Virus record (IMG/VR): IMGVR_UViG_2671180921_000015
Span: 1 to 21,701 of that record
Length of the DNA: 21,701 nt
Direction: 5' to 3' (one strand)
Source: a virus
Taxonomy: Duplodnaviria; Heunggongvirae; Uroviricota; Caudoviricetes
This document shows positions 9,228-21,701 of this stretch, one piece after another. The number at the start of each line of letters is the position of its first letter. The first letter of the stretch is position 1. A program made the translations under genes and the position numbers. The notes beneath the pieces are model-generated. The model searched no databases. It saw nothing but the letters and a program-made list of their open reading frames with translations, and was not told the origin of the DNA.

Positions 9228-9452
9228 ATGTTTGTGAAACCTGTACCGGGGCGCAGGGTGCGCTACCCCGGCGACCCGTCACGCCTGCTGCCTGATGAGG
9301 GGGCGGAGGTGCCGGATCGTGATTTGTTCTGGCGACGCCGCCTGAAGCAGGGGGATGTGGTGCTGGCTGACAAAGCCACCACGGCAGCCAGCGGCAAAGT
9401 GACCGTGTCCACGGCAGCAACAGGCAGCACGGCGAAAGGGGGTGATGCATGA
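9228..9452 (+). CDS. Small tail protein preceding the sheath gene (DUF2635-like by position)
   Basis: ATG 9228 preceded by AGGAG (9216-9220); 74 aa; its stop overlaps the sheath start (ATGA). The track's 9174 start is less likely because it lacks an RBS. Confidence 0.55.
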   Translation: MFVKPVPGRRVRYPGDPSRLLPDEGAEVPDRDLFWRRRLKQGDVVLADKATTAASGKVTVSTAATGSTAKGGDA

Positions 9453-10951
9453 CGGTCTCGTTCAGCAATATCCCGTCAAATCTTCGTGTGCCACTGTTCT
9501 ACGTCGAAGTGGACAACTCGATGGCGAACAGCGCCACGGAGACACAGCGCACACTGCTGATTGGTCAGATGACGGCAGAGGGGACCGCCACGGCAGGGAC
9601 GGCATACCGCTGTTCGTCGGCCTCCACGGCAGCCGGACTGTGTGGTGAAGGCTCAATGCTGCATACCATGCTGACAGCCTACCTTAAAAACGACAGCTAC
9701 GGAGAGACCTGGCTGCTGCCGCTGGCGGATGATGACAGCAGCATGACGACGGCCACGGGCAGCATATCTGTTGACAGTGTGCCGACGGCATCCGGCGTCA
9801 TTTACCTGTACATCGCAGGGACCCGTGTTCGCCTGACGGTGAAGTCAACGTACACGCAGTCGGAGATAGCCAGTCTGCTGGCGGCAAAAATTAATGCAAC
9901 CTCTGCGCTGCCGGTGACCGCATCGGTGGCCAGCGACGGCACGACCATTGAACTCACCGCCAGAAATGCCGGTGAGACGGGAAACACCATTGATATCCGG
10001 CTGAACTATCTCGGTTCATCCGGCGGTGAGTCCACCCCGGACGGCCTGACGCTGACCATCACGGCGATGAGTGGCGGGGAGGGGGCGCCGGACCTTGCGG
10101 ATGCGCTCGCCTCTCTGGGCGACCGCACGTTTGATTTCATTGTCCTTGCTTATCCGGACACCACTTCGCTCAACGACATGAAGGATTTTCTGTCGGATGA
10201 CGAAGGGCGCTGGGCGTGGGACAAACAAATCTACGGTCATGCCTTCACGGCGGCGAGCGGCAGCTACGGCGAGCTGGCGGACAAGGGGGAAAGCCGCAAC
10301 GACCGGCACATGACCATCTGGGGCGTGTATGACGGTCCGAACACTTCGTATGATTATGCTGCCGCGATGGTGGGAGCGCTGGCGCAGTCGGTCCGTAACG
10401 ATCCGGCGAGACCTACGCAGACGCTGTCGGTGTCCGGTGTGCTGGCTCCACCGCTGGCAAGTCGTTTCACCCTGACGGAGCGGAACACGCTTTTGTACAG
10501 CGGCATCTCAACCTTCACGGTGTCAGACGACGATACGGTGACGCTTGAGAACACCATCACCACGTACCAGACCAACAGCTACGGTGCGGCGGACGACAGT
10601 TACCTGCAGATCGAGACGATGTACACACTGATGTATGTGATGCGCTCCATGAAGACGCAGGTGACGTCGAAGATGGGGCGGATGAAGCTGGCGGACGATG
10701 GCGCGAATATTCCGGCAGGGAGTGCGATTGTCACCCCGTCGATCATCCGGGCCGAACTGATTGCTCAGTTCAACACGCTGGCGAACAACGGCTACGTACA
10801 GGATGCGGATGCGTTTGCGGAGCAACTGGTGGTTGAGCGTGACAGTGACAACCCGAACCGCGTGAACGTGGTGTGGCCGGGCCGCCTGATGAACCAGTTA
10901 CGCATCTTTGCGGTGCGGAACCAGTTCAGGCTGAACAGCAGCAGTGATTAA
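9449..10951 (+). CDS. Tail sheath protein (Mu gpL-like)
   Basis: 500 aa. N-terminus MTVSFSNIPSNLRVPLFYVEVDNS is, to my recollection, the characteristic start of Mu-type sheath proteins. Followed by an intrinsic terminator and the tube gene. Confidence 0.88.
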   Translation: MTVSFSNIPSNLRVPLFYVEVDNSMANSATETQRTLLIGQMTAEGTATAGTAYRCSSASTAAGLCGEGSMLHTMLTAYLKNDSYGETWLLPLADDDSSMTTATGSISVDSVPTASGVIYLYIAGTRVRLTVKSTYTQSEIASLLAAKINATSALPVTASVASDGTTIELTARNAGETGNTIDIRLNYLGSSGGESTPDGLTLTITAMSGGEGAPDLADALASLGDRTFDFIVLAYPDTTSLNDMKDFLSDDEGRWAWDKQIYGHAFTAASGSYGELADKGESRNDRHMTIWGVYDGPNTSYDYAAAMVGALAQSVRNDPARPTQTLSVSGVLAPPLASRFTLTERNTLLYSGISTFTVSDDDTVTLENTITTYQTNSYGAADDSYLQIETMYTLMYVMRSMKTQVTSKMGRMKLADDGANIPAGSAIVTPSIIRAELIAQFNTLANNGYVQDADAFAEQLVVERDSDNPNRVNVVWPGRLMNQLRIFAVRNQFRLNSSSD

Positions 10952-10958
10952 CCATGAT

Positions 10959-10980
10959 GCCGCCTGCGGGCGGCTTTTTT
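10959..10980 (+). terminator. Intrinsic terminator after the sheath gene
   Basis: GCCGCC-tgcg-GGCGGC stem-loop followed by TTTTTT, starting 8 nt after the sheath stop. Confidence 0.6.
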
Positions 10981-10990
10981 ACGGGAGACG

Positions 10991-11356
10991 ATGATGAGTA
11001 AGAACGCGTTAGCGGGCACCTGTACCGTGACGATTGACGGCGTGTCGGTCAATGTGGCCGGGACGTTCAGATATTCCGTGGGTGAAATCGAGCGTGAAAC
11101 GCTCACGGGAATGAGCGGCATACATGGCTTTAAGGAGTCGTACAAAGCGCCGTTTATCGAGATGACGGTACGTGATTCCGGCTCACTGTCACTGAAGGAT
11201 TTTGCGGCATATACGGATGTGACGGTGGCGGCTTATCTGGTGAACGGCAAGACCATTCTCGGCCAGAACATGTGGCTGGTTGGCCGGATTGAGACAGACA
11301 ACAACGATGCAACCTTTACGGCCCGTTTTGAAGGGCAAACGGTGTCGGAGAGCTGA
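10991..11356 (+). CDS. Tail tube protein (Mu gpM-like)
   Basis: 121 aa. Size and position directly after the sheath gene and before the frameshifted chaperone pair; RBS GGGAG at 10982-10986. Confidence 0.75.
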   Translation: MMSKNALAGTCTVTIDGVSVNVAGTFRYSVGEIERETLTGMSGIHGFKESYKAPFIEMTVRDSGSLSLKDFAAYTDVTVAAYLVNGKTILGQNMWLVGRIETDNNDATFTARFEGQTVSES

Positions 11357-11637
11357 TGATGAATGAGAAACAGACAGAAGAACTGGTGGTGACCCTGAAA
11401 CGTCCGGTAAGGGATCCGGATACCAGGACGGAGTTCCGTGAGCTGCGCCTGAAAGAGCCGGTGCTGTTCCAGGCGGAGGACTTTCACCGCAATACCGCCT
11501 CACTGGGCGCAATGGCGGCCATGCGTGAGCTGATTGCGGCAGTGGCGGGTGTGCCGTCTGCCCCGCTGAAGTTCATGGCGGTGTCCGATTACAAAAAGTG
11601 CGAACGGTTCCTGACGGGTTTTTTCCTGGAAGCCTGA
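11356..11637 (+). CDS. Tail assembly chaperone (short, in-frame product; lambda G / P2 E analogue)
   Basis: 93 aa, start overlapping the tube stop (TGATG). Lies immediately upstream of the tape measure gene and ends just after a TTTTTTC slippery heptamer. Confidence 0.75.
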   Translation: MMNEKQTEELVVTLKRPVRDPDTRTEFRELRLKEPVLFQAEDFHRNTASLGAMAAMRELIAAVAGVPSAPLKFMAVSDYKKCERFLTGFFLEA

Positions 11638-11783
11638 GCCAGTGGCAGGCGAGGGCGGCTGAACTGACGTGGTTCTTTCGCTGGTCCCCGCGCGAGGCGT
11701 GGGGGCTGACGTCAGGGGAAATTCTCTGGTGGGCGTCGCAGGCAGCGCGGATCAACAGACTGAGGAGTGGCGATGGCGGGTAA
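11356..11783 (+). CDS. Tail assembly chaperone, -1 frameshift fusion product (GT / E+E' analogue)
   Basis: Slippery heptamer T_TTT_TTC at 11619-11625 in the zero frame. The -1 frame is open from there to 11783 and encodes PGSLSQWQARAAELTWFFRWSPREAWGLTSGEILWWASQAARINRL, overlapping the tape measure start. No independent RBS for the -1 ORF. Confidence 0.65.
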
Positions 11784-13740
11784 TGCTTTCAATTTTGAGC
11801 TGAATGCACGGGATAACGCGAGTGCGCTTCTGCAGAGAGCCTCAGAGGCTGCCGGGTCGCTGGCGGGTAACGCAGAGCAGGCGGCCGCCTGCGTGTCGTC
11901 ACTGTGTGACGGTCTTGATGCGGTGAATGAAACGCCCCTGAGCGGGGCATCCGGTGCGGCAGATGCGCTGGGCGGGAAGATAACGCAGATCCACGACTCG
12001 GTAACGCTACTGATGAATGCGCTGCTGGCCACAGACAGTGCGGGCAAAAGGGCGCTGGGAAAGGAGAGTCAGGAGAATGCGGACAGGATGTCCGGATATT
12101 TTGAACGTCTGTCCCGGCTGGGGAAAGACACATCACAGCACTTCGGGGATATTGTGCCGCCGCTGCGCAATGTCGGGGCACTGTCATCGGAGCTGTTCAG
12201 CGCACTGGGGCGCGGAGGTCTTGTGGGGCTTACGGCTGCCGTCGGTGGTAAGGCGGTGAAGGCGGTCGTCAGTCATCTTTATGATGCCTCGAAAGCGGCA
12301 TACAGCCTGGATGTGAACGCAAGAAACGCCGGAATGAGTGTGAGTGCGTTCAGCCGGTTTGCCGGGGTGTTCCGCCTGATGGGGCTGTCGGCAGAGCAGG
12401 CGCAGGCGGAGACCGGTTCACTGTTCACGACACTGAACGATGCGCTGAACACCCGTTCACCGGAGGTGGTGGGCATACTGAACCAGTTCGGTGTGACGCT
12501 GGCGGAGAACAGCAACCACACGGTGAACCTTGAGAAAAGCACGCAGAACCTGACTGACGCCTTCGGGCGGATGAACAGCTCATCGCAGAAGGTGGTGGCG
12601 GACGCACTGGGGCTGTCAGATGCACAACTGGCGCTGCTGCGGGGAACAAAAAACCTGAATGCGGCGCTGGCGGAGTCCGATCGCCTGAAACTGACGATGC
12701 CGGACAGCCTGAACGCAAAGCTGGTTCAGGCGAACAGCAACCTGAACCTTCTGTCTGCTGCGTGGGACGGCTTCACTGACAGAGTGAAGGCGAAAGTGCT
12801 GGGCAGTGATGCCGTCACCGCCTCTGTTGACTGGGCGGTTGACGTCATGAGCGACAGGCGCAGCAGCCAGCAGAAAACGGGTGATCATCTGTCAGAGCTG
12901 CGCAGTTATCTGTATGCGCATCCGGAGAAACTGAAGTCACTGACGTCGCGGCAGAGATACAATCTCGAAAACAATATCGCGACATCCGATCTTCTGGCGA
13001 TGCACACGCGTCTGTCCGGTCAGCGGTCCGACAGGCTGAATGCGCTCACGGCAACGCTCAGCAACGACCTTGCAGCGGCGCTGTCGGCACCGTCACAGGC
13101 GATATCACAACCGCCCTCATCATCACAGCAAGGTGGTACAGGTCGCAACGACATCACCCCTGAACTGCTGGCGCATTTTGCGGCGCTGGAGAAGCAGTAC
13201 AACCTTCCGGCAAACACGCTGTACGGTCTGGCCATGACGGAGTCGTCGGGACGGGCGGATGCGGTCGGGCCGCTCACCCGTTACGGTGCGGCAAAGGGGA
13301 TGTTTCAGTTCATCGACCCGACGGCGCGGGAGTTCGGGCTTTCCGGCATGGATGTGTTTAACCCTTACCGGGCCTCGGAGGCGGCGGCCAGAAAACTGGC
13401 GGGGCTGATGGCGCAGTATGGTGGTGACATGCAGCGCGCCTTTCAGGCGTACAACTGGGGCGAAGGCAACATGAGTGCCTGGCTTCGCGGACATAAGGGG
13501 ATGCCGCAGGAGACGCAGGCCTACGCGCCGAAGGTACTCAGGCACATGTCACAGATATCCGGCGGCAGCATCATCACGCCGCAGTCCGGCAGTTCAGTGG
13601 CAGACGTGCGGGATGAAATCAGTCGCGGTTTCAGCGAAAACAAAATCCGGCTGGACATTAACGTCACCAACACGACCACGGGGCAGACAACCCGCCGGAC
13701 GGTGAAGGGAGGCGCGGTGTCCACGGCGATGGATGTGTGA
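11773..13740 (+). CDS. Tail tape measure protein with C-terminal lytic transglycosylase (SLT) domain
   Basis: About 655 aa, Ala/Leu-rich and helical in composition. ATG 11773 preceded by GAGGAG (11762-11767). C-terminal region carries SLT-type motifs: AMTESSG (catalytic Glu-Ser), GMFQF, AYNWGEGN. Confidence 0.85.
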   Translation: MAGNAFNFELNARDNASALLQRASEAAGSLAGNAEQAAACVSSLCDGLDAVNETPLSGASGAADALGGKITQIHDSVTLLMNALLATDSAGKRALGKESQENADRMSGYFERLSRLGKDTSQHFGDIVPPLRNVGALSSELFSALGRGGLVGLTAAVGGKAVKAVVSHLYDASKAAYSLDVNARNAGMSVSAFSRFAGVFRLMGLSAEQAQAETGSLFTTLNDALNTRSPEVVGILNQFGVTLAENSNHTVNLEKSTQNLTDAFGRMNSSSQKVVADALGLSDAQLALLRGTKNLNAALAESDRLKLTMPDSLNAKLVQANSNLNLLSAAWDGFTDRVKAKVLGSDAVTASVDWAVDVMSDRRSSQQKTGDHLSELRSYLYAHPEKLKSLTSRQRYNLENNIATSDLLAMHTRLSGQRSDRLNALTATLSNDLAAALSAPSQAISQPPSSSQQGGTGRNDITPELLAHFAALEKQYNLPANTLYGLAMTESSGRADAVGPLTRYGAAKGMFQFIDPTAREFGLSGMDVFNPYRASEAAARKLAGLMAQYGGDMQRAFQAYNWGEGNMSAWLRGHKGMPQETQAYAPKVLRHMSQISGGSIITPQSGSSVADVRDEISRGFSENKIRLDINVTNTTTGQTTRRTVKGGAVSTAMDV

Positions 13741-13750
13741 GGAGCAGAAG

Positions 13751-15163
13751 GTGGGCATTATCACAGACGCGGTGGCGGACACGCTGGGGCTGTCTTCCAC
13801 CGGCGGGTGGGACTGGCAGTCGCATATTAATCAGGCGTCCTTCCGCGGTGTGCCGTTTGGCGTCATCAGCGGTGAGAGCGTGGTGGGCCGCCGGGTGGCG
13901 GTACATGAATATCCGTACCGGGATACGGTGTGGGTGGAAGACCTGGGACGCAGCGCCCGGAAGTTCACGCTGCGTGGGTTCCTGATACAGGACAGTCTGG
14001 TGTACAGCGCCGGAGATGTGTTCAGCCAGCGTGACGCGATGATTGCGGCCTGCGAGACATCCGGTGGTGGTCTGCTGGTGCATCCGACGCTGGGTGAGAT
14101 GACGGTTTACGTGCCGGACGGCGGTCTGCGCATTGAGGAGGGGGTGGAGTCCGGGCGTGTGTTTTCGTTCATGCTGACCGTCATTGAGTCAGGTGAAAAA
14201 GCGTTTTCACTGGTGACGGGGACAAGCTCCACGTCATCGGAGACGTGGTATCAGACGCTGACCACAACGGCCGCCGTGATGCTGGCGGCGATTACCGGTG
14301 AGATGAACAGTGTCACCGGGGCGGTTAAGACGATAAAGAGCACGGTGAGCGCGTGGGAGACGATATTTTCGCGGGCGGTGACATCGGTGACCAGTATGAC
14401 CAGCACGGTGTCGTCCCTGTTTTCTCCGGACAGCTACGGGCGTTACTGCACAGCCAGTGACAGCGGGACCGCATCAGGCAGCACGGCCTCGTCACTTTCC
14501 ACGTGGCTTGCCACCACGGAGGCGGATGATGACAGCATTCTGGAAACCATTCAGGCCTGCTCCGTGCGGGACCGGTCGGCGGCGGAATCGGCGATAGCGG
14601 CGCTGGATGACATCTCGTCCGTATCCGGTGCTGTGTCCGCGATACAGGCGGTCATCACCACGCTGGCGGAGGCCACGGGCAGTGACACGGAGAAAATCCG
14701 CGTCATGGCAGAGATTGCGTCGGCGGAAGACGGGACGTATTACGAAGGGGAGACGGCCTGCGCCATCAGTGCATCCGTGCAGGCCTTCATCCGCACCCTG
14801 GGCGCCGGTGCGATGCTGTGGCGACTGATGCAGTACACCCCTCAGGGTTACGATGATGCGGTGTCGGTGATGCGGAAGGCCCGCACGGTGACAGAGGCGG
14901 TACTGCTTCTGCTTGCTGATGCCGGAGATGACGACAGTCACGATGCGCTGAATGCGCAGTACACGCAGTTTGTCACGCACTGGCAGACGAATTATCTGTC
15001 ACAACAGGACGTGATGAAGGTGACCAGCCGCTCACCGCAGCCGTCGCTGGCGCTGGCAAACCGGCTGTATCAGGACGCCGCGCGTGCGGACGAACTGGTA
15101 CAGGCGGCCTCTCCCGTCCATCCGGCGTTCATGCCGCTTTCCTTCACAGCGAGAAACTCATGA
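13751..15163 (+). CDS. DNA circularization protein (Mu N / gp43-like)
   Basis: About 470 aa, directly after the tape measure gene as in Mu. Start placed at GTG 13751 (GAGGAG at 13739-13744, 6-nt spacer); ATG 13733 overlapping the tape measure stop is the alternative. Confidence 0.7.
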   Translation: MGIITDAVADTLGLSSTGGWDWQSHINQASFRGVPFGVISGESVVGRRVAVHEYPYRDTVWVEDLGRSARKFTLRGFLIQDSLVYSAGDVFSQRDAMIAACETSGGGLLVHPTLGEMTVYVPDGGLRIEEGVESGRVFSFMLTVIESGEKAFSLVTGTSSTSSETWYQTLTTTAAVMLAAITGEMNSVTGAVKTIKSTVSAWETIFSRAVTSVTSMTSTVSSLFSPDSYGRYCTASDSGTASGSTASSLSTWLATTEADDDSILETIQACSVRDRSAAESAIAALDDISSVSGAVSAIQAVITTLAEATGSDTEKIRVMAEIASAEDGTYYEGETACAISASVQAFIRTLGAGAMLWRLMQYTPQGYDDAVSVMRKARTVTEAVLLLLADAGDDDSHDALNAQYTQFVTHWQTNYLSQQDVMKVTSRSPQPSLALANRLYQDAARADELVQAASPVHPAFMPLSFTARNS

Positions 15164-16248
15164 GTACAACCACAGACGACACCCTGACACTGAAGGTAAA
15201 CAACACCGTCATGTCGGGGTGGAATGATATCCGGGTGACGCGGGGCGTAGAGCGTCTGCCGTCGGATTTTGAGCTTTCGCTCACGGACTGGTATCCGCAG
15301 GAAGGATACCAGCTTGCCCCGCCGGGGAGCAGCTGCACGATAACCATCGGCGACGACCGGGTGATGACCGGCTATGTCGACCAGTGGGTGAACACCCTGA
15401 CGCCGCAGTCGCATGACATCCGGGTGACGGGCAGGGGGATGTGTCAGGACCTGGTGGACTGCTCCGCCTGGTGGGAGAACAACATGATAAAGGGCGGTGA
15501 TGCGCTGGCCATCATCAGAAAACTGGCGTCGGTGTACGGCATCACGGTGACGACAGACGTCGACAGTTTCACCACGGTGCCGGATTTTGTCATCAACTGG
15601 GGAGAGTCGTCGCAGCAAATCATCGACCGCATCTGCCGGTATGAGGGGCTTCTGTATTACGACCTGCCGGATGGCAGCCTGTTCCTGACGCGTGCGGGAA
15701 CGGCGTCGGCAGCCAGCGGGGTGACACAGGGGGTGAACCTGCAGAAGGCGGAGTACACACGAAGTATGAATGAACGGTTTTCGGAATACACCGGCCTGTC
15801 GGTGTCAGTGAACAGTATCAGCGAACTGTCGCCGGCATCCGGTTATGACAGCGTGATGCTGGCAACAGCCAGCGACCCGGAAGCGGCCGGTATGCGCACC
15901 CGCCGTCACGTCACGATAGTGGAGAGTACGCTGATGACAACGGGGTGTGCACAGCAGGCGGTGAACTGGGAAATGAACCGGCGCTACGGGCGTTCAATGG
16001 CCCTGAATGTGACGGTGGACAGCTGGCGTGACAGTGCAGGGGTGCTGTGGCAGCCCAACACCTTTGTGCCGGTGAGCATACCGGCACTGGGGGCGGACAG
16101 TCTGAACTGGCTGGTTTCTGAGGTGACATTCAGTCGTGACGATGAGACGGGGACCACGGCATCGCTGGTTCTGATGCCGCCGGAAGCGTTCAGCGTGCAG
16201 CCGTACCGTTTTTATTCCGGCGTGGCCGGAAGGGATGTGTCGTCATGA
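15160..16248 (+). CDS. Baseplate hub protein (Mu P / gp44-like, P2 gpD-like)
   Basis: 362 aa with ATGA overlap with N. Size and order (N, then P, then spike) match the Mu tail module. Confidence 0.7.
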   Translation: MSTTTDDTLTLKVNNTVMSGWNDIRVTRGVERLPSDFELSLTDWYPQEGYQLAPPGSSCTITIGDDRVMTGYVDQWVNTLTPQSHDIRVTGRGMCQDLVDCSAWWENNMIKGGDALAIIRKLASVYGITVTTDVDSFTTVPDFVINWGESSQQIIDRICRYEGLLYYDLPDGSLFLTRAGTASAASGVTQGVNLQKAEYTRSMNERFSEYTGLSVSVNSISELSPASGYDSVMLATASDPEAAGMRTRRHVTIVESTLMTTGCAQQAVNWEMNRRYGRSMALNVTVDSWRDSAGVLWQPNTFVPVSIPALGADSLNWLVSEVTFSRDDETGTTASLVLMPPEAFSVQPYRFYSGVAGRDVSS

Positions 16249-16826
16249 ATCCTGTACAGGTGCTTTTCCGCCGTCTGGTATCACTGCTGAGCGTGGGGCG
16301 CGTGACGGCGGGGGATGACAGCGGTGTGGTGCAGACCGTGCAGGTGCAGAGTCCGTCAGAGGTGCGCAGCGACACGCCGGTTCTTCAGCAGTTTGGATTT
16401 TCCTCAGTGCTGCCTGCCGGAACGGATGTGGTGGTAATGAGCCTTGCCGGAAACCGCAGCAGCGCGGTGGTGGTGGCGTCCGGGCATCAGTCATACCGGA
16501 TTAACGGTCTGAACAGCGGCGAGGTGGTGGTGTACAACCAGTGGGGGCAGTACGTCCGGCTGGGTGAGGATGGGATTGTGGTGGAGGCGTCAGGGCAGCA
16601 GGTGTTGGTGAACAGTGCCACCACGCTTGAGGTGACGGCGACGGACGGGGTCACCCTGAAAACGCCGTCGCTGAAGGTGACGGGGGATATCACGGACAAC
16701 TGCGAAAGCAACAGCACCACGCTGAAGGCGCTGCGGGAGGCATACAACGACCACACACATCCGGTCAGCGGTGTGGAAAGTGGCGGCAGCACGGTGACAA
16801 GTCAGGCAACCACGGAGACGGTGTGA
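16245..16826 (+). CDS. Baseplate central spike / assembly protein V (Mu gp45-like)
   Basis: 193 aa with ATGA overlap. Gly/Val-rich beta-type sequence with a C-terminal HxH motif (YNDHTHPVSG), as I recall for gp45/gpV-type spikes. Confidence 0.7.
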   Translation: MNPVQVLFRRLVSLLSVGRVTAGDDSGVVQTVQVQSPSEVRSDTPVLQQFGFSSVLPAGTDVVVMSLAGNRSSAVVVASGHQSYRINGLNSGEVVVYNQWGQYVRLGEDGIVVEASGQQVLVNSATTLEVTATDGVTLKTPSLKVTGDITDNCESNSTTLKALREAYNDHTHPVSGVESGGSTVTSQATTETV

Positions 16827-16827
16827 G

Positions 16828-17265
16828 ATGAGCGATATCACGCTTTTTTACGATGAAGAGGCGCTGCATTGCGACTGGTCGGTGGGGACGGGCGATATGG
16901 TCTGCGGAAATGACCTGCAGACGGCCATTCTCATCAGCCTGTTCACGGACCGGCTGGCGGATGCATCAGATGAGACGGACGACGGCAACCGGCGCGGATG
17001 GTGGGGTGACCTTGAGCAGGATTACCGGGTCGGCTCCCGGTTGTGGCTGCTGCGCAGGCAGAAACTGACCACGCAGGTGGCGCTGAAAGCGGAGGCATAC
17101 GCCCTTGAAGCGCTGCAGTGGCTGAAGGACGACGGCGTGGTGGCTTCACTGGATGTGGAGGCGTGGATAGTGCCGCCGGACCGGCTGTACATGACCATCG
17201 CATATCAGCGTCCGGATGCGGACACGACGGAATACCAGAAATTTTATCAGGTGTGGGAGGTATGA
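16828..17265 (+). CDS. Baseplate protein, GP46 family (Mu gp46 / P2 gpW-like)
   Basis: 145 aa, coupled between the spike and J-like genes; size and position typical of the GP46 family. Confidence 0.7.
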   Translation: MSDITLFYDEEALHCDWSVGTGDMVCGNDLQTAILISLFTDRLADASDETDDGNRRGWWGDLEQDYRVGSRLWLLRRQKLTTQVALKAEAYALEALQWLKDDGVVASLDVEAWIVPPDRLYMTIAYQRPDADTTEYQKFYQVWEV

Positions 17266-17266
17266 C

Positions 17267-18421
17267 ATGCCGTTTGAACGCCCCGGATTAAGTGAGCTGC
17301 GGGAGAAAAGCCGGTCGTATGTGACCGGTCAGCTGGATGAGGCGGGGGCTTTGCTGCGGTTTTCCACGCCGGGGATTCTGGCGGATGCCGTGGCGGGCAT
17401 GACACATCTGCATTACGGCTATCTTGACTGGATAGCGCAGCAGTGCACACCGGCCACGGCCACCGGGGAATATCTGGCGGCGTGGGGCGCGCTGAAGGGT
17501 ATCATCCGCAAGGCCGCAGAGGCCGCGGCCTGTGACGAGGTGCAGTTCACGGGAACCGTCGGCAGCACCGTGAGTGCGGGGGCGGTACTGAACCGTGCGG
17601 ACGGGTATCAGTACACGCTGGATGAGGATGTGAGCATTGACAGTGACGGCAGCGGTTCAGGGAGTATTACCGCCGTGCTGCCGGACCCGACGGATGACAG
17701 CAGCGGCGGTGGCGACGACGGTAACGCGGATGCCGGTACGACACTGACACCGGATGTCACCTGGTCCGGTATTGACTCAACGGTGACGATGGTGACGGCT
17801 GCCACCGGCGGCAGTGACACTGAGGAAGAGGAGACGTACCGTCAGCGTGTGCTGTATGCGTACCAGAACCCGCCTCAGGGCGGTGCGGCGGCGGACTATG
17901 TGCAGTGGGCACTGGAGGTTCCCGGCGTGACCCGGGCGTGGTGCGTGAACCGTGCGCTGGGGTTCGGAACGGTGGGTGTCTACATCATGACGGACGGTGA
18001 CGACGAGGACAACGCCGGGGGCTTTCCTGACGGCACGGACGGCGTGGCAACGGATGAGGACTGGACAGACCGGAAAGCCACGGGGGTACAGTTCACGGTG
18101 GCGGACTATATCCGCGATTACCAGCCGGTCACGGCGGTGGTGTATGTGATGTCGCCGGTGGCCAGAAGCATTGATTTTGAAATACAGGGGCTGAGTGATG
18201 CCACGGCGGCACTGAGGGCACAGGTGGAGAGCGCCATCAGCGAGGTGCTGTACAACGTGGATGAACTGGACGGCAGCGGGGTGATTAATCTTTCTGACCT
18301 GTATTACGCCATTGCGGACATTGAGGGGACAGACGGCTTCATTCTGGTGTCTCCTGACAGCAACATCACGCTGTCGCAGGGAGAGCTGCCGGTCACCGGA
18401 AGTATCACATGGGCAACATGA
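17267..18421 (+). CDS. Baseplate J-like protein (Mu gp47-like)
   Basis: About 384 aa from ATG 17267, preceded by GGGAGG (17255-17260). Size and position match baseplate J. Contains an acidic Gly/Asp-rich insertion (DDSSGGGDDGNADAG). Confidence 0.75.
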   Translation: MPFERPGLSELREKSRSYVTGQLDEAGALLRFSTPGILADAVAGMTHLHYGYLDWIAQQCTPATATGEYLAAWGALKGIIRKAAEAAACDEVQFTGTVGSTVSAGAVLNRADGYQYTLDEDVSIDSDGSGSGSITAVLPDPTDDSSGGGDDGNADAGTTLTPDVTWSGIDSTVTMVTAATGGSDTEEEETYRQRVLYAYQNPPQGGAAADYVQWALEVPGVTRAWCVNRALGFGTVGVYIMTDGDDEDNAGGFPDGTDGVATDEDWTDRKATGVQFTVADYIRDYQPVTAVVYVMSPVARSIDFEIQGLSDATAALRAQVESAISEVLYNVDELDGSGVINLSDLYYAIADIEGTDGFILVSPDSNITLSQGELPVTGSITWAT

Positions 18422-18429
18422 GGAAAATC

Positions 18430-19599
18430 ATGAGTCGTTTTTCACATGATGACTACACGTGCGCGATGGTGAATCTTCTGCCATCGGGGATGGCGTGGAA
18501 CCGGCTGCCTGACAGCGTGCAGTACAGGCTGATACGCGGGCTGGCGCAGGCGTATCAGCAGAGTGACGCTGATGCGTGTGCACTGATAACAGGGGCCTTC
18601 CCGGAAACGGCGGATGCGCTCACTGATGAGTGGTATGCCTCGCTGGGGCTGAATGATGAATGCGGAACGCAGGTATCCACCACAGACCTGGCGCAGGCCA
18701 GAAAATTCATTCTGGCGAAACTGCTGTCGACGGGCGGGCAGAGCGTGGCGTATTTCACGGAGCTGGCGGCGACGATGGGCTACAGCATCCGTATCCGTGA
18801 GTACCGCACACCGCTGTGCGGGTTTTCGTGGTGCGGGCACCTGCTGAGTGATGACAACCGGTTCAACTGGACCGTGGTGGTGGCCCCGCCGGGGGATGAC
18901 GTGACCACCTCACGGGCGTACCTGGAATGCCTGTTTCGTCGTTATGCCCCGGCACAGACGCTGGTGACGTTTGAGTGGCAGTCGTCATACAGCGCCGTCC
19001 TGAGTATGGCGTGGGACAACAGCACGCGCCTTCTTTCTGGTGCACTGATGGCGGATGAGGGTGTGGTGGTGTCGGGCGTGACTGTGAATGTCGTCATCAA
19101 ATCCATGTCGGGACAGCGGTATGTGGCGACGGTGTCCACAGACAGTGACGGGGGCTGGTCGTTTGAAGCGGATGATGAAACCTTCACAAATGGCAGTTAC
19201 ACGGTTTATGCGCAGGCGGACGTGGATATGCCGGATGATGTCACGGTGCCTGTACGAAGCGCGTTACTGAATGTACGGGTACAGACACAGGGTGAGGGGG
19301 ACAACGGTGATGATGAGCCGGCATCTGACGACACGACGCAGGAGCCGCTGGTCATTAACAGGGTGATGCTTCAGTCGGGGCGCACGACGCAGGAGCCGCT
19401 TGTCATTAACAGGGTGATGCTTCAGTCGGGGCGCATGACGCAGGAGCCGCTTGTCATTAACAGGGTGATGCTTCAGTCGGGGCGCATGACGCAGGAGCCG
19501 CTTGTCATTAACAGTGCGATGCTTCAGTCGGGATATCTGACGCAGGAGCCAGTGGTCATTAACAGGCTCTGGCTGAATTTTGCCGTCACTAATGAGTGA
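18430..19599 (+). CDS. Baseplate/tail protein, Mu gp48 / YmfQ (DUF2313)-like, with C-terminal Ig-like domain and 17-aa tandem repeats
   Basis: N-terminal roughly 190 aa sits in the gp48 position after the J-like gene. Start is ATG 18430 (GAGGA at 18420-18424), with 18409 or 18418 as alternatives. C-terminal extension holds a beta-rich Ig-like segment (GVTVNVVIKSMSGQRYVATVSTDSDGGWSFEADDETFTNGSYTVYAQA) and then 4.7 copies of TQEPLVINRVMLQSGRM. Confidence 0.7.
   Translation: MSRFSHDDYTCAMVNLLPSGMAWNRLPDSVQYRLIRGLAQAYQQSDADACALITGAFPETADALTDEWYASLGLNDECGTQVSTTDLAQARKFILAKLLSTGGQSVAYFTELAATMGYSIRIREYRTPLCGFSWCGHLLSDDNRFNWTVVVAPPGDDVTTSRAYLECLFRRYAPAQTLVTFEWQSSYSAVLSMAWDNSTRLLSGALMADEGVVVSGVTVNVVIKSMSGQRYVATVSTDSDGGWSFEADDETFTNGSYTVYAQADVDMPDDVTVPVRSALLNVRVQTQGEGDNGDDEPASDDTTQEPLVINRVMLQSGRTTQEPLVINRVMLQSGRMTQEPLVINRVMLQSGRMTQEPLVINSAMLQSGYLTQEPVVINRLWLNFAVTNE
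19336..19575 (+). repeat. 51-bp direct tandem repeat (about 4.7 copies) in the 3' end of the gp48-like gene
   Basis: acgcaggagccgct(g/t)gtcattaacagggtgatgcttcagtcggggcgca(c/t)g repeated head-to-tail from 19336; copies 2 and 3 are nearly identical, copies 4 and 5 diverged. In frame, encoding 17-aa units. Confidence 0.85.
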
Positions 19600-20686
19600 C
19601 AACAACGAAAGGAGACTGTTTTTGAACTCAATCATACTTGAAGGATTCCGGCAGATAGCGGCGGATGAGGCGCTGTGCGACAGCTACACTTCACTCAACA
19701 TTCTTTCCGCACTGAACAAAAACGGCGTCACACTTATCACCGAAATGTCAGGTTCGGTGAGTTCTGTGTGCCGCACCACGCAGACCATCAATACGGTGGC
19801 GCGTACCGGGCTGGCATTCACGACATCATCAAACCTCATGCTCAGGTGTCTGCTGCCTGATTTGAGTGAGACGGCGGTGCAGTTCGGGTTTCGCCTGTCA
19901 CTGGGGGAGGGAGAGAAGTATTCCTCTTCTCCGTCTCACATCGGGATTGGCAGCGCATCGTTCACCACCCCGTATCCGGATGAAGCCGCCAGCTACTATT
20001 TTGAGATTTTTGCTGCCTGGAACGGCAGCAGCACGGTCAGTGCCAGTCTGTACTGTAACCGCGCGCTGGTCGGGAGCACGACTCTCGGTGTGTCATCGTC
20101 AGGAACAGGGGCGGTGAGTGTCCGGATTGGCGGTGGCAACAATGTATTTGCATCAGGTGTGAGCGGCATTTTCATGCCGGGTGATATGTACTGCATGACG
20201 GTGCCGTATGGTGATAACTATGATGCCTCACCATCACTGCTGGGGAGTATTGAGGTCGGCTACAGTCCGGTAACGGCATTCACCGGGGGGAGTGCCACAA
20301 ACTCGCTGAGTAAAGATATTGTCACCGGGCTGAACGCATCTGATGACGACAGCGGGTATCTGATACTGAACAGTTCAGGTGAAGCCGCCGGGGTCACGTT
20401 TGAGGATATTGATAACACCGGGGGAACCCTGGTTGCGGTGCAGGCAGCGGTCACCCTGCGGGAGTCAGCTTCGCCGAATAATCTTCTTGCATGGAGTGTG
20501 GGGTGCGGAAGCAGCAGGGGCGATGTGATATCAGAAACGGAGGCAGTAAGCGACACAAACAGCTGGACGACGGTGACGCAGGGGGTCATGAGCATGCCCG
20601 GAGATGGCGGTGCGTTTGAAACAGGCGCACTGACCTTCACGGCGAATCTGTATAACCGGAAGAAAAGTGAACAGGAGACGGCCTGA
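19592..20686 (+). CDS. Hypothetical protein between baseplate and tail fiber genes (possible receptor-binding or fiber-associated protein)
   Basis: 364 aa from ATG 19592, overlapping the gp48-like stop (ATGAGTGA); its own stop overlaps the fiber start (TGATG). Ser/Gly/Thr-rich, beta-type composition. I recognise no family. Confidence 0.6.
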   Translation: MSDNNERRLFLNSIILEGFRQIAADEALCDSYTSLNILSALNKNGVTLITEMSGSVSSVCRTTQTINTVARTGLAFTTSSNLMLRCLLPDLSETAVQFGFRLSLGEGEKYSSSPSHIGIGSASFTTPYPDEAASYYFEIFAAWNGSSTVSASLYCNRALVGSTTLGVSSSGTGAVSVRIGGGNNVFASGVSGIFMPGDMYCMTVPYGDNYDASPSLLGSIEVGYSPVTAFTGGSATNSLSKDIVTGLNASDDDSGYLILNSSGEAAGVTFEDIDNTGGTLVAVQAAVTLRESASPNNLLAWSVGCGSSRGDVISETEAVSDTNSWTTVTQGVMSMPGDGGAFETGALTFTANLYNRKKSEQETA

Positions 20687-21477
20687 TGAGAAAAATATCG
20701 GACATCACATCATATGTGGATGAGAATGACGAGTTCACGGACGGTGAGCCAGCCACAGGCGTGAAGCCGACGCCGTTGCTTGCTCTCTGGTTCAACGTCA
20801 TACAGCGGGAGCTGGTGAAGGTGGTGGAGAGTGCGGGGCTGACACTGGACCCGACAGATGACACACAGCTATGGCAGGCGCTGTCGGGCTATTTTGCCTC
20901 ACAGGAGAATGTGAACACCACAATCAGCGCGCTGGGCACGATGGCTTCCCAGAACAGTGATGCGGTGGATATCACCGGCGGCGCGATAACAGGCACCTCC
21001 CTCACCGGTGACCTGACGGGCAATGCGGACACGGCCACAAAACTGAAAACGGGGCGGAAAATCCGGACAAATCTTGACAGCACGAGTGCTGTCAGTTTTG
21101 ACGGCAGTGCGAATGTCACGCCGGGCGTGACCGGCACATTGCCGGTGAGCAATGGCGGTACGGGGGCCACGACGGCATCAGACGCCAGAACAAATCTGGA
21201 GCTGGGAGATGTGGCAACCCAGAGTCTGAGTACGCTCGATGCCCGTTACCTGCTGACGACAGGAGGTGTGTCGGCGGTAAGGCTGGGGAGTGTCAGTTCA
21301 TATAGCCCTCCCGGCAACGAGTCGTCGTGGACGCAGAATCTTTCCTCCGGCAATGTGCTCACAGGGATTATCGTTCAGGATACAGGGTCCAATTCTGCGG
21401 ATAACATTGGCGGAATTTATTACAGGCAGGTTCAGTACTGCATAAACGGCACATGGATAAATGCGGTATCACTGTAA
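20686..21477 (+). CDS. Tail fiber protein (short; Mu S / P2 H-type C-terminus)
   Basis: 263 aa with RBS AGGAG (20673-20677). Contains the fiber-type motif LPVSNGGTGATTASDARTNLELG and ends YRQVQYCINGTWINAVSL, resembling the P2 H C-terminus (RPIQKYINGTWYNVAQV) as I recall it. Followed by a tail fiber assembly gene. Confidence 0.75.
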   Translation: MRKISDITSYVDENDEFTDGEPATGVKPTPLLALWFNVIQRELVKVVESAGLTLDPTDDTQLWQALSGYFASQENVNTTISALGTMASQNSDAVDITGGAITGTSLTGDLTGNADTATKLKTGRKIRTNLDSTSAVSFDGSANVTPGVTGTLPVSNGGTGATTASDARTNLELGDVATQSLSTLDARYLLTTGGVSAVRLGSVSSYSPPGNESSWTQNLSSGNVLTGIIVQDTGSNSADNIGGIYYRQVQYCINGTWINAVSL

Positions 21478-21489
21478 AGGAGAGTGTTA

Positions 21490-21701
21490 ATGATAAACAT
21501 CAAAAATTTCACGCCATACATCCCGGAAAACCCGCCCGTGCCGTGGGCGTCATATCTCATCAGCGAGGATGGTCAGGACTGGTATGAATGCCAGACGCAG
21601 TTTGCAGAGGATACATACAAAGTTGCGTACGGCAGTGACGGTATCGTGCGCAGCATTTCGACCGATGTGTCGGCACTTTTTCCGCTCAACATGAGTGTTG
21701 C
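21490..21701 (+). CDS. Tail fiber assembly chaperone (Tfa / Mu U / P2 G family), 3'-truncated by the window end
   Basis: ATG 21490 preceded by AAGGAG (21477-21482). N-terminus MINIKNFTPYIPENPPVPWASYLISEDGQDWYECQTQFAEDTYKVAYGSDGIVRSI matches the Tfa N-terminal pattern. The ORF runs off the end of the window. Confidence 0.8.
   Translation, partial: MINIKNFTPYIPENPPVPWASYLISEDGQDWYECQTQFAEDTYKVAYGSDGIVRSISTDVSALFPLNMSV

Follow-up and report, generated by a model that had tools for sequence, protein, structure and literature searches.

A two-part cassette, most likely for host recognition, swapped among Escherichia coli prophages

Why should a phage with a Mu-like tail carry an additional gene between the baseplate and the tail fiber? 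The question is raised by IMG/VR record IMGVR_UViG_2671180921_000015, from a virus of the Caudoviricetes, whose positions 1 to 21,701 were analyzed here (hereafter, the window). In Mu, as an earlier note on this DNA stated correctly, the fiber gene directly follows gp48 (PMC11915804), and the same order is seen in a sister prophage with a short gp48 (locus L042). In the window, however, an uninterrupted open reading frame (ORF) on the + strand, closed by a stop codon at 20684-20686, lies between the gp48-like gene (18409-19599) and the gene for a 263-aa tail fiber (20686-21477). The answer proposed below is that this gene and the repeats at the end of the gp48-like protein upstream of it are most likely the two parts of a host-recognition cassette that E. 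coli prophages swap.

That there is an extra gene at this position, as the note claimed, is borne out by a full-length match of its product to the protein family phrog_8291 (E 1.9e-138, 462 bits; residues 11-357 of the protein on profile positions 1-347 of 349) and by homologs 40-98% identical to it. The note had recognized no family. A catalogued one does exist, although its function is not annotated, and it is the sole PHROG match of the protein at E up to 0.1. The protein has no match in Pfam (E up to 0.1), NCBIfam, PADLOC (E up to 0.1) or the sequences of the PDB (E up to 10). The family is tiny: a word-indexed search of 5.8 billion proteins returned 22 clusters of homologs within that range of identity, all the named ones from E. 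coli, an exhaustive search of 1.84 billion representative proteins with a hidden Markov model returned 16 family representatives, those with names all being Escherichia, and a scan of species-representative genomes added Escherichia albertii. By DNA search, the family is present in 61 of 5426 complete E. coli genomes (~1%), and three carry the exact cassette of the window. Divergent members (proteins P0026-P0029, 23-28% identity) lie in P2-like prophages, which were not found in the complete E. coli genomes. Searches of the literature, aimed at phrog_8291 and at extensions of gp48, yielded no description of the family, the repeat or a two-part cassette. Per-column entropy reveals scattered variable patches in the protein (residues 78-86, 141-150, 160-185, 305-320 and 340-350) and no single hypervariable domain.

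Where does the gene begin? The note took the product to be 364 aa long, which would place the start at an ATG at 19592, but the conservation of the family argues for a shorter protein. A TTG at the position equal to 19622 of the window is the start in all 32 Escherichia-type loci considered, which present nine different upstream contexts, each with a purine-rich element ahead of the TTG. In the window, the element can be read as a Shine-Dalgarno sequence, AAGGAG (19609-19614, + strand), 7 nt before the start. The conserved TTG was noted, besides the window, at loci L001, L004, L005, L008, L018, L019, L023, L024 and L041, and the RefSeq start in a 96%-identical prophage (L001) is the same codon. 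The 10-codon extension at the N-terminus is unique to the 364-aa gene call (P0001); no other full-length homolog in the alignment starts before position 11 of the 364-aa ORF. Because the TTG at 19622 is the conserved start, the gene is read here as 19622-20686 (+ strand), encoding a phrog_8291 member of 354 aa and starting 22 nt past the gp48 stop codon. The 10 extra codons (19592-19621, + strand) are probably untranslated, that is, the ATG at 19592 is probably not used as a start. Nor do the junctions have the ATGA-type overlaps that had been described on both sides: the ATG at 19592 overlaps the gp48 stop codon by 8 nt (ATGAGTGA), and the junction with the fiber gene is a 1-nt overlap, TGATG. 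The strict retention of a weak TTG start suggests that low expression relative to the gp48-like protein matters.

A programmed frameshift that would fuse gp48 to this ORF was considered and rejected. The frames are offset by +1, but the junction lacks a slippery or prfB-like context, a conserved Shine-Dalgarno sequence and TTG follow the gp48 stop codon, and none of the 16 representatives is a fusion. In composition, the protein and its gene are as the note had described them: serine, glycine and threonine make up 34.6% of the residues, and the GC fraction is 0.556, against 0.597 +/- 0.020 for the genes from the terminase to the gp48 core. Windowed GC shows that the fall starts within the gp48 extension and runs on through the fiber and assembly genes. 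Inspection of the N-terminus found neither a signal peptide nor a membrane segment.

The gp48-like gene (18409-19599, + strand) encodes a baseplate wedge protein (BW3) with a C-terminal extension, and we refer to it and to its counterparts at other loci as anchors. The Pfam family Phage_Mu_Gp48 covers aa 19-189 (E 3.3e-21), and 'Baseplate protein gp48' of PDB entry 9ki1 (180 aa) aligns to aa 17-190 (E 1.4e-13). After this Mu gp48 core come an Ig-like domain, an acidic linker and five tandem repeats. The Ig-like domain, at about aa 195-292 (18991-19284, + strand), is predicted by AlphaFold2 to be a beta-sandwich, with a predicted local distance difference test score (pLDDT) of 80-95, and weak Pfam matches to Big_13, CarboxypepD_reg and SdrD_B fall at aa 210-273. 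The acidic linker (QTQGEGDNGDDEPASDD) extends to 19334. The start at 18409 is that of the longest ORF and is probably too far 5'; the RefSeq equivalent is 18430, and most homologs open with MSRFSHDDY.

The five repeats (19335-19596, + strand), each 17 aa of the form TQEPLVINRVMLQSGRx, constitute the proposed docking stalk. At 19335-19566, Tandem Repeats Finder detects a 51-nt period (4.5 copies, 92% matches), and the final, degenerate copy terminates in LNFAVTNE. Comparison with the anchors of other loci gives a consensus of 17-18 aa, xPLxINRxxLQSGxxTx. Modeled as a monomer, the repeats have a pLDDT of about 30, and so are predicted to lack an autonomous fold, as expected of a segment that needs a partner. 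They match nothing in Pfam (E up to 10) or, whether the repeat region or a two-repeat profile is used, in the PDB, and four fragments were all that the repeat profile retrieved from a database. A resemblance to the pattern xPLxV....L of the triple beta-spiral in adenovirus and reovirus shafts found no support: neither an adenovirus fiber nor any other PDB chain was matched, nor Adeno_shaft at E 10. The trimeric context of a triple beta-spiral is also disfavored, as Mu gp48 is present in one copy per wedge (PMC11915804).

The array is variable in its own right. Near-identical prophages have four or five copies (L009 versus L010; P0040 versus P0050), in gp48 proteins at least 88% identical and 372-389 aa long, and the copies themselves appear as shuffled variants (RVMLQSGR, RAHLQSGY and SAMLQSGY). 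The differences in copy number and the shuffling of copies suggest slippage or recombination inside the array.

What connects the array to the gene downstream? At every family-bearing locus examined, an anchor ending in repeats is encoded, a pairing that had escaped the note. At 31 of 33 loci, the repeats end the ORF directly upstream of the family gene; at the other two (L018 and L019), fiber and assembly genes intervene, and the gp48 two genes upstream ends in seven repeats. The anchors belong to four unrelated classes: Mu gp48, P2 gpI, a Phage_tail_fib stub (the N-terminal domain of P2-H type) and a phage_tail_N stub (of lambda-Stf type). In two P2-like prophages (L036 and L037), gpI owes its length of 300 aa to five 18-aa repeats (SVPVKAINGTxINAGNVL), and at L041, a repeat-ended gp48 (P0060) is followed by family member P0019. 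Since many of the loci are near-duplicates, the count reduces to about 10 independent combinations of anchor and partner. The gp48 variants found without repeats do not precede the family gene, whether the protein is short, ends after the Ig domain and has the fiber gene next to it (L042 and L043), is fused to leucine-rich repeats (LRR; L002 and L003) or is a Big_2 variant. Partners 87% identical to one another occur with anchors drawn from different classes, which share just 35% identity over their last 40 aa and keep in common no more than the generic repeat motif. Since such similar partners serve dissimilar anchors, the part recognized would be the generic repeat motif or perhaps the hydrophobic last copy (LxFAVV).

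Two lambdoid loci differ in detail. At L005 (5793-5978), the family gene is preceded by a 61-aa ORF consisting of three repeats. At L006 (4945-7092), the Stf stub ends in ...LQSGVINYNESDEGAE, and its partner lacks the conserved N-terminus MNIIxLEGF, as if an insertion or deletion had hit the junction.

The pair also moves as a pair. Comparison by blastn with two sister prophages (L003 and L002) puts breakpoints at 19257 (19179 for strain E24377A) and 20691, so the swappable cassette (19257-20691, + strand) runs from the last part of the Ig domain through linker and repeats to include the complete phrog_8291 gene. Instead of it, the sister prophages carry a stretch of 3.6 kb or 1.8 kb that extends gp48 with a fused BspA-type LRR domain (Pfam LRR_5). 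The gp48 core is kept, and the flanks, including the fiber and assembly genes, are 88-91% identical. Because the swap replaces both together, the repeats and the phrog_8291 gene move as one unit; because the fiber is kept after the swap, the 263-aa fiber is independent of them; and because the LRR takes the place of the cassette, the functional alternative to the cassette is a covalent domain of an adhesion-associated type.

More generally, the C-terminus of gp48 in this lineage appears as a hypervariable display platform (L002 6248-8782; L003 7431-11843; P0053; P0055; P0056; P0058). The protein may end after the Ig domain (286-293 aa) or continue with Big_2 (547 aa), with Big_2 plus BspA-type LRR (681, 844 or 1470 aa) or with the repeat array. 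The LRR_5/Big_2 fusions (844 aa in E24377A, 1470 aa in DS26-1; also P0053 and P0055) occupy the same place as the cassette, between the Ig-like domain that follows the gp48 core and the same 263-aa fiber, and presumably are surface-binding appendages too. They differ in that their binding domain is covalent and an LRR solenoid, whereas that of the window is separately encoded, presumably attached through the repeats and composed of lectin-type sandwiches.

The lectin-type sandwiches are seen in an AlphaFold2 model of the phrog_8291 protein built on an alignment of 21 sequences (pLDDT 80.3; predicted template modeling score 0.82). In agreement with the note's description of a beta-type protein, the predicted structure is mostly beta. 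It contains two beta-sandwich domains, at about aa 50-205 and 225-357 (numbered as in the 364-aa version), both predicted to be sandwiches of ConA/lectin type (LamG-like jelly-rolls). The curved, two-sheet sandwich that marks the superfamily of ConA-like lectins and glucanases is present in the model; at the level of sequence, no curated profile of a lectin, LamG or a carbohydrate-binding module (CBM) was matched (Pfam, NCBIfam and PDB sequences). Against the PDB, Foldseek gave weak lectin-type matches, with legume lectins at E about 1e-4, and did not find the two-domain arrangement in any solved structure. Among predicted viral structures (BFVD), full-length matches were obtained to proteins of about 350 aa from cultured siphophages (template modeling scores 0.59-0.62, E 2e-13 to 1e-9).

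The top match in that set is AchV4_0026, a 352-aa 'virion structural protein' of Achromobacter phage vB_AchrS_AchV4 (Casjensviridae) and one of three tandem paralogs encoded right after a putative fiber gene, at the distal end of the tail module. AchV4_0025 and AchV4_0026 were found in virions by liquid chromatography with tandem mass spectrometry, with 22 and 14 peptides (PMC7996906, Table 1). A narrow, single-family profile did not link the phrog_8291 proteins to these paralogs. However, a wide profile that included the P2-type members aligned to AchV4_0025-0027 by hhalign with 92.6% probability (E 4.6e-7, 195 columns). An N-terminal motif is common to both families: the phrog_8291 proteins open with MNIIxLEGFRQI and the AchV4 paralogs with MTLLHMDGFDQF, MIRFMDGFDQEV and MAIIDLEGFERLV, of the form MxxxxMDGFDQ or LEGFER. 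Since the wide profile aligns to the trio, the protein of the window is, as judged from profile comparison, a remote relative of virion tail proteins verified by mass spectrometry. The likeness extends to length, two-domain architecture, the motif MxxxxxEGFxQ and a distal place in the tail module after a short fiber gene, and similar proteins of about 350 aa are found also in Serratia JS26, Cronobacter JC01, Providencia Kokobel1 and others. The differences are a low identity (12-17%) and a setting of tandem paralogs in a siphophage, with no 17-aa repeat anchor upstream.

What, then, does the cassette do? With moderate confidence, we favor the view that the phrog_8291 protein is a separately encoded, lectin-like accessory adhesin, mounted on the repeat stalk of gp48, that probably binds a surface glycan and would complement the fibers in adsorption and host range. 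The note had proposed an accessory receptor-binding, fiber-associated or carbohydrate-binding module, and the fold, the homology to AchV4 proteins and the swap with an adhesin-like LRR domain lend this computational support. In Mu, each of six wedges has one gp48, and the trimeric fiber docks on a loop (133-155) of the gp48 core (PMC11915804). Given one gp48 per wedge, with the fiber on the core loop, the gp48 extension of the window would form a second, separate set of six peripheral appendages. The 354-aa protein would be made in the cytoplasm, would be non-enzymatic, with its two ConA/LamG-like sandwiches, and would make up one half of a two-part module whose other half is the repeats of gp48. 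It would bind the repeat stalk non-covalently, and the baseplate would thereby gain six extra peripheral adhesin appendages beside the six fibers. These might bind a glycan of the host surface (lipopolysaccharide, O-antigen, capsule or similar) in initial adsorption, modulating host range. The analysis shows the make-up of the locus, the pairing, the swap, the predicted fold and the remote homology; from there on we infer the binding of a receptor and a glycan, the docking on the repeats and its stoichiometry, the presence of the protein in the virion of this phage, and an effect on adsorption.

One may go further and suppose a universal docking socket in the form of the repeat array, into which the phrog_8291 protein fits as a plug, the two forming a portable two-gene adhesin system. 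The system could then be grafted onto proteins that differ in architecture and oligomeric state, whether monomeric wedge proteins (Mu gp48, P2 gpI) or trimeric fiber stubs. Possibly one adhesin would sit on each repeat, in which case valency would be set by the number of repeats, which varies through the 51-nt unit. We regard this broader proposal as tentative.

Several observations weigh against an accessory adhesin of this kind. The family was found in none of 50,697 phage records (tblastn with the window protein and the divergent P0026, up to E 10), and, because no cultured phage carries it, incorporation into virions is known just for very distant relatives. The fold rests on 21 sequences, and while the best model has the pLDDT given above, the other four have 67-70. 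The conserved TTG implies modest expression, which disfavors many copies per repeat array. Part of the co-occurrence of anchor and partner is explained by the co-inheritance of adjacent genes. Finally, the module looks decayed at L005 and L006, where the gene is either kept without a functional anchor or is itself decaying.

Might the protein instead be an enzyme? A polysaccharide depolymerase, in the manner of a PL7/PL14 lyase or a GH16/GH131-like jelly-roll, could cleave capsule or O-antigen from the baseplate, and jelly-roll lyases do occur among the fold matches. The identity to such enzymes is 5-15%, however, non-catalytic lectin and CBM domains score equally, and no Pfam enzyme family matched at E up to 0.1. 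PL7 lyases rely on a conserved catalytic histidine, but the phrog_8291 protein has a single histidine, in an alignment column that is not conserved. A depolymerase is unlikely. The strict genetic pairing with the repeats would be equally well explained by an assembly factor or chaperone that serves the stalk or the anchor and either is absent from the finished virion or is kept at the tip, like Tfa. The lack of an autonomous predicted fold in the repeats would fit such a role, as would the low abundance suggested by the TTG start. Yet 354 aa and two lectin-type sandwiches are unlike known fiber chaperones, no profile of Caudo_TAP, DUF4376 or another chaperone was matched, and the true assembly gene starts at 21490. 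Moreover, the distant relatives AchV4_0025 and AchV4_0026 are abundant enough in virions to yield the peptide counts given above (PMC7996906), and a bare stalk would have no evident purpose at a site where sister phages carry a binding domain (the LRR). We consider a chaperone improbable.

A further candidate is a non-structural moron or lysogenic-conversion gene that merely sits beside the tail genes. In its favor, the GC content is below that of the head and tail genes, the family is known from prophages only, and at lambdoid loci L005 and L006, the family gene is the last phage gene before host DNA, a typical place for morons. But in the window the gene is on the same strand as the tail operon and packed within it, 22 nt after gp48 and with a 1-nt overlap with the fiber gene. 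The protein's N-terminus has neither a signal peptide nor a membrane segment, and no PADLOC defense model was matched. A moron would hardly be expected always to accompany a repeat anchor, across four anchor classes, or to be swapped jointly with a segment of a structural gene, or to have remote homology to virion proteins, and so this explanation appears very unlikely. Last, the gene might encode the N-terminal, proximal half of a canonical tail fiber that has been split, the outcome that the note itself had named as counting against its interpretation. It does lie directly upstream of the fiber gene, with the 1-nt overlap, and its richness in serine, glycine and threonine is similar to the fiber's. 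However, the protein has no fiber profile in Pfam or PHROGs (attachment or shaft of Mu gp49/S, P2 H or lambda Stf), and its predicted fold is globular and two-domain, not that of a fibrous trimer shaft. The 263-aa fiber matches the N-terminal parts of fiber families from residue 1, and an 88%-identical fiber follows gp48 directly in L002 and L003 without the phrog_8291 gene. On these results, a split fiber is effectively refuted and retains an extremely small likelihood.

The surroundings of the cassette are those of a mosaic prophage. A lambda-type head (gpA terminase, lambda-family portal, S49 protease and gpE capsid) occupies 1341-8151, and a Mu-type contractile tail (sheath, tape measure, DNA-circularization protein, gp44, gp45, gp46, gp47 and gp48) occupies 9449-19599. 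The protein at the position of the tape measure (11767-13740, 657 aa) has a lytic transglycosylase (SLT) domain at aa 472-578. The longest-ORF start of gp47, at 17216, is probably too far 5'; its RefSeq equivalent is 17267 of the window. The order at the distal end is gp46-gp47-gp48, cassette gene, fiber and assembly protein. The fiber gene (20686-21477, + strand), which stands apart from the cassette and has an N-terminus of its own, matches several PHROG tail-fiber families over aa 1-262, down to E 8e-30. The tail fiber assembly gene (21490-21701, + strand) is cut by the end of the window and was identified by phrog_136 (E 7.9e-24) and its RefSeq equivalent in L001.

At the other end, positions 1-1500 have a markedly lower GC fraction, of 0.51-0.52 against about 0.60, and just ahead of the large terminase gene is an ORF of 269 aa (578-1387, TTG start) that has no Pfam match and could encode the small terminase subunit or be a foreign insert. 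In the 96%-identical prophage (L001), found in E. coli 377323_2f, a tyrosine integrase gene adjoins dusA (L001 15252-17475). Past the fiber assembly gene, outside the window and on the opposite strand, related prophages have a gene for an alpha/beta-fold hydrolase (L001 13532-14320, L002 10412-11202, L003 13473-14170), whole in L001 but split in the other two, that may be a moron.

Is there a precedent for the proposed arrangement? The nearest relatives are the AchV4-type tail proteins, and the nearest analogs in function are the gp48-LRR fusions of the sister prophages. Separately encoded binding subunits sit on adaptors in the case of gp38 at the tip of gp37 in T2/T6-type phages, and in that of BppL and BppA on BppU in the lactococcal phages TP901-1 and Tuc2009, where BppA is an accessory carbohydrate-binding module. 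These systems resemble the cassette in combining a conserved adaptor with an exchangeable, separately translated binding subunit. They differ in that the attachment is through folded domains of trimeric proteins, rather than an array of 17-aa repeats on a wedge protein present once per wedge, and no relation in sequence or fold was found, with no test aimed at these systems. Mu itself offers a homologous gp48 core and the order gp46-gp47-gp48-fiber-assembly protein, but its gp48, at 180 aa, has no extension, its fiber gene is directly next, and it has no equivalent of the repeats or of the 354-aa protein (PMC11915804).

For temperate E. coli phages, and for tools derived from phages, host range is set by the distal proteins of the tail. 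At the locus considered here, a baseplate wedge protein serves as a display platform, with heads that range from none through Big_2 and LRR to a repeat array plus a lectin-like protein. If the array is a docking site, then it amounts to a compact attachment tag of about 85 aa, already found on at least four anchor proteins, and new binding modules might be mounted by it on tailocins or on tails of the Mu-like, P2-like or lambdoid kind. A role would also be assigned to a PHROG family and to a repeat that are both unannotated. And should the more tentative idea of a universal socket and plug hold, it would constitute a new principle for mounting receptor-binding proteins and a handle for the engineering of host range.

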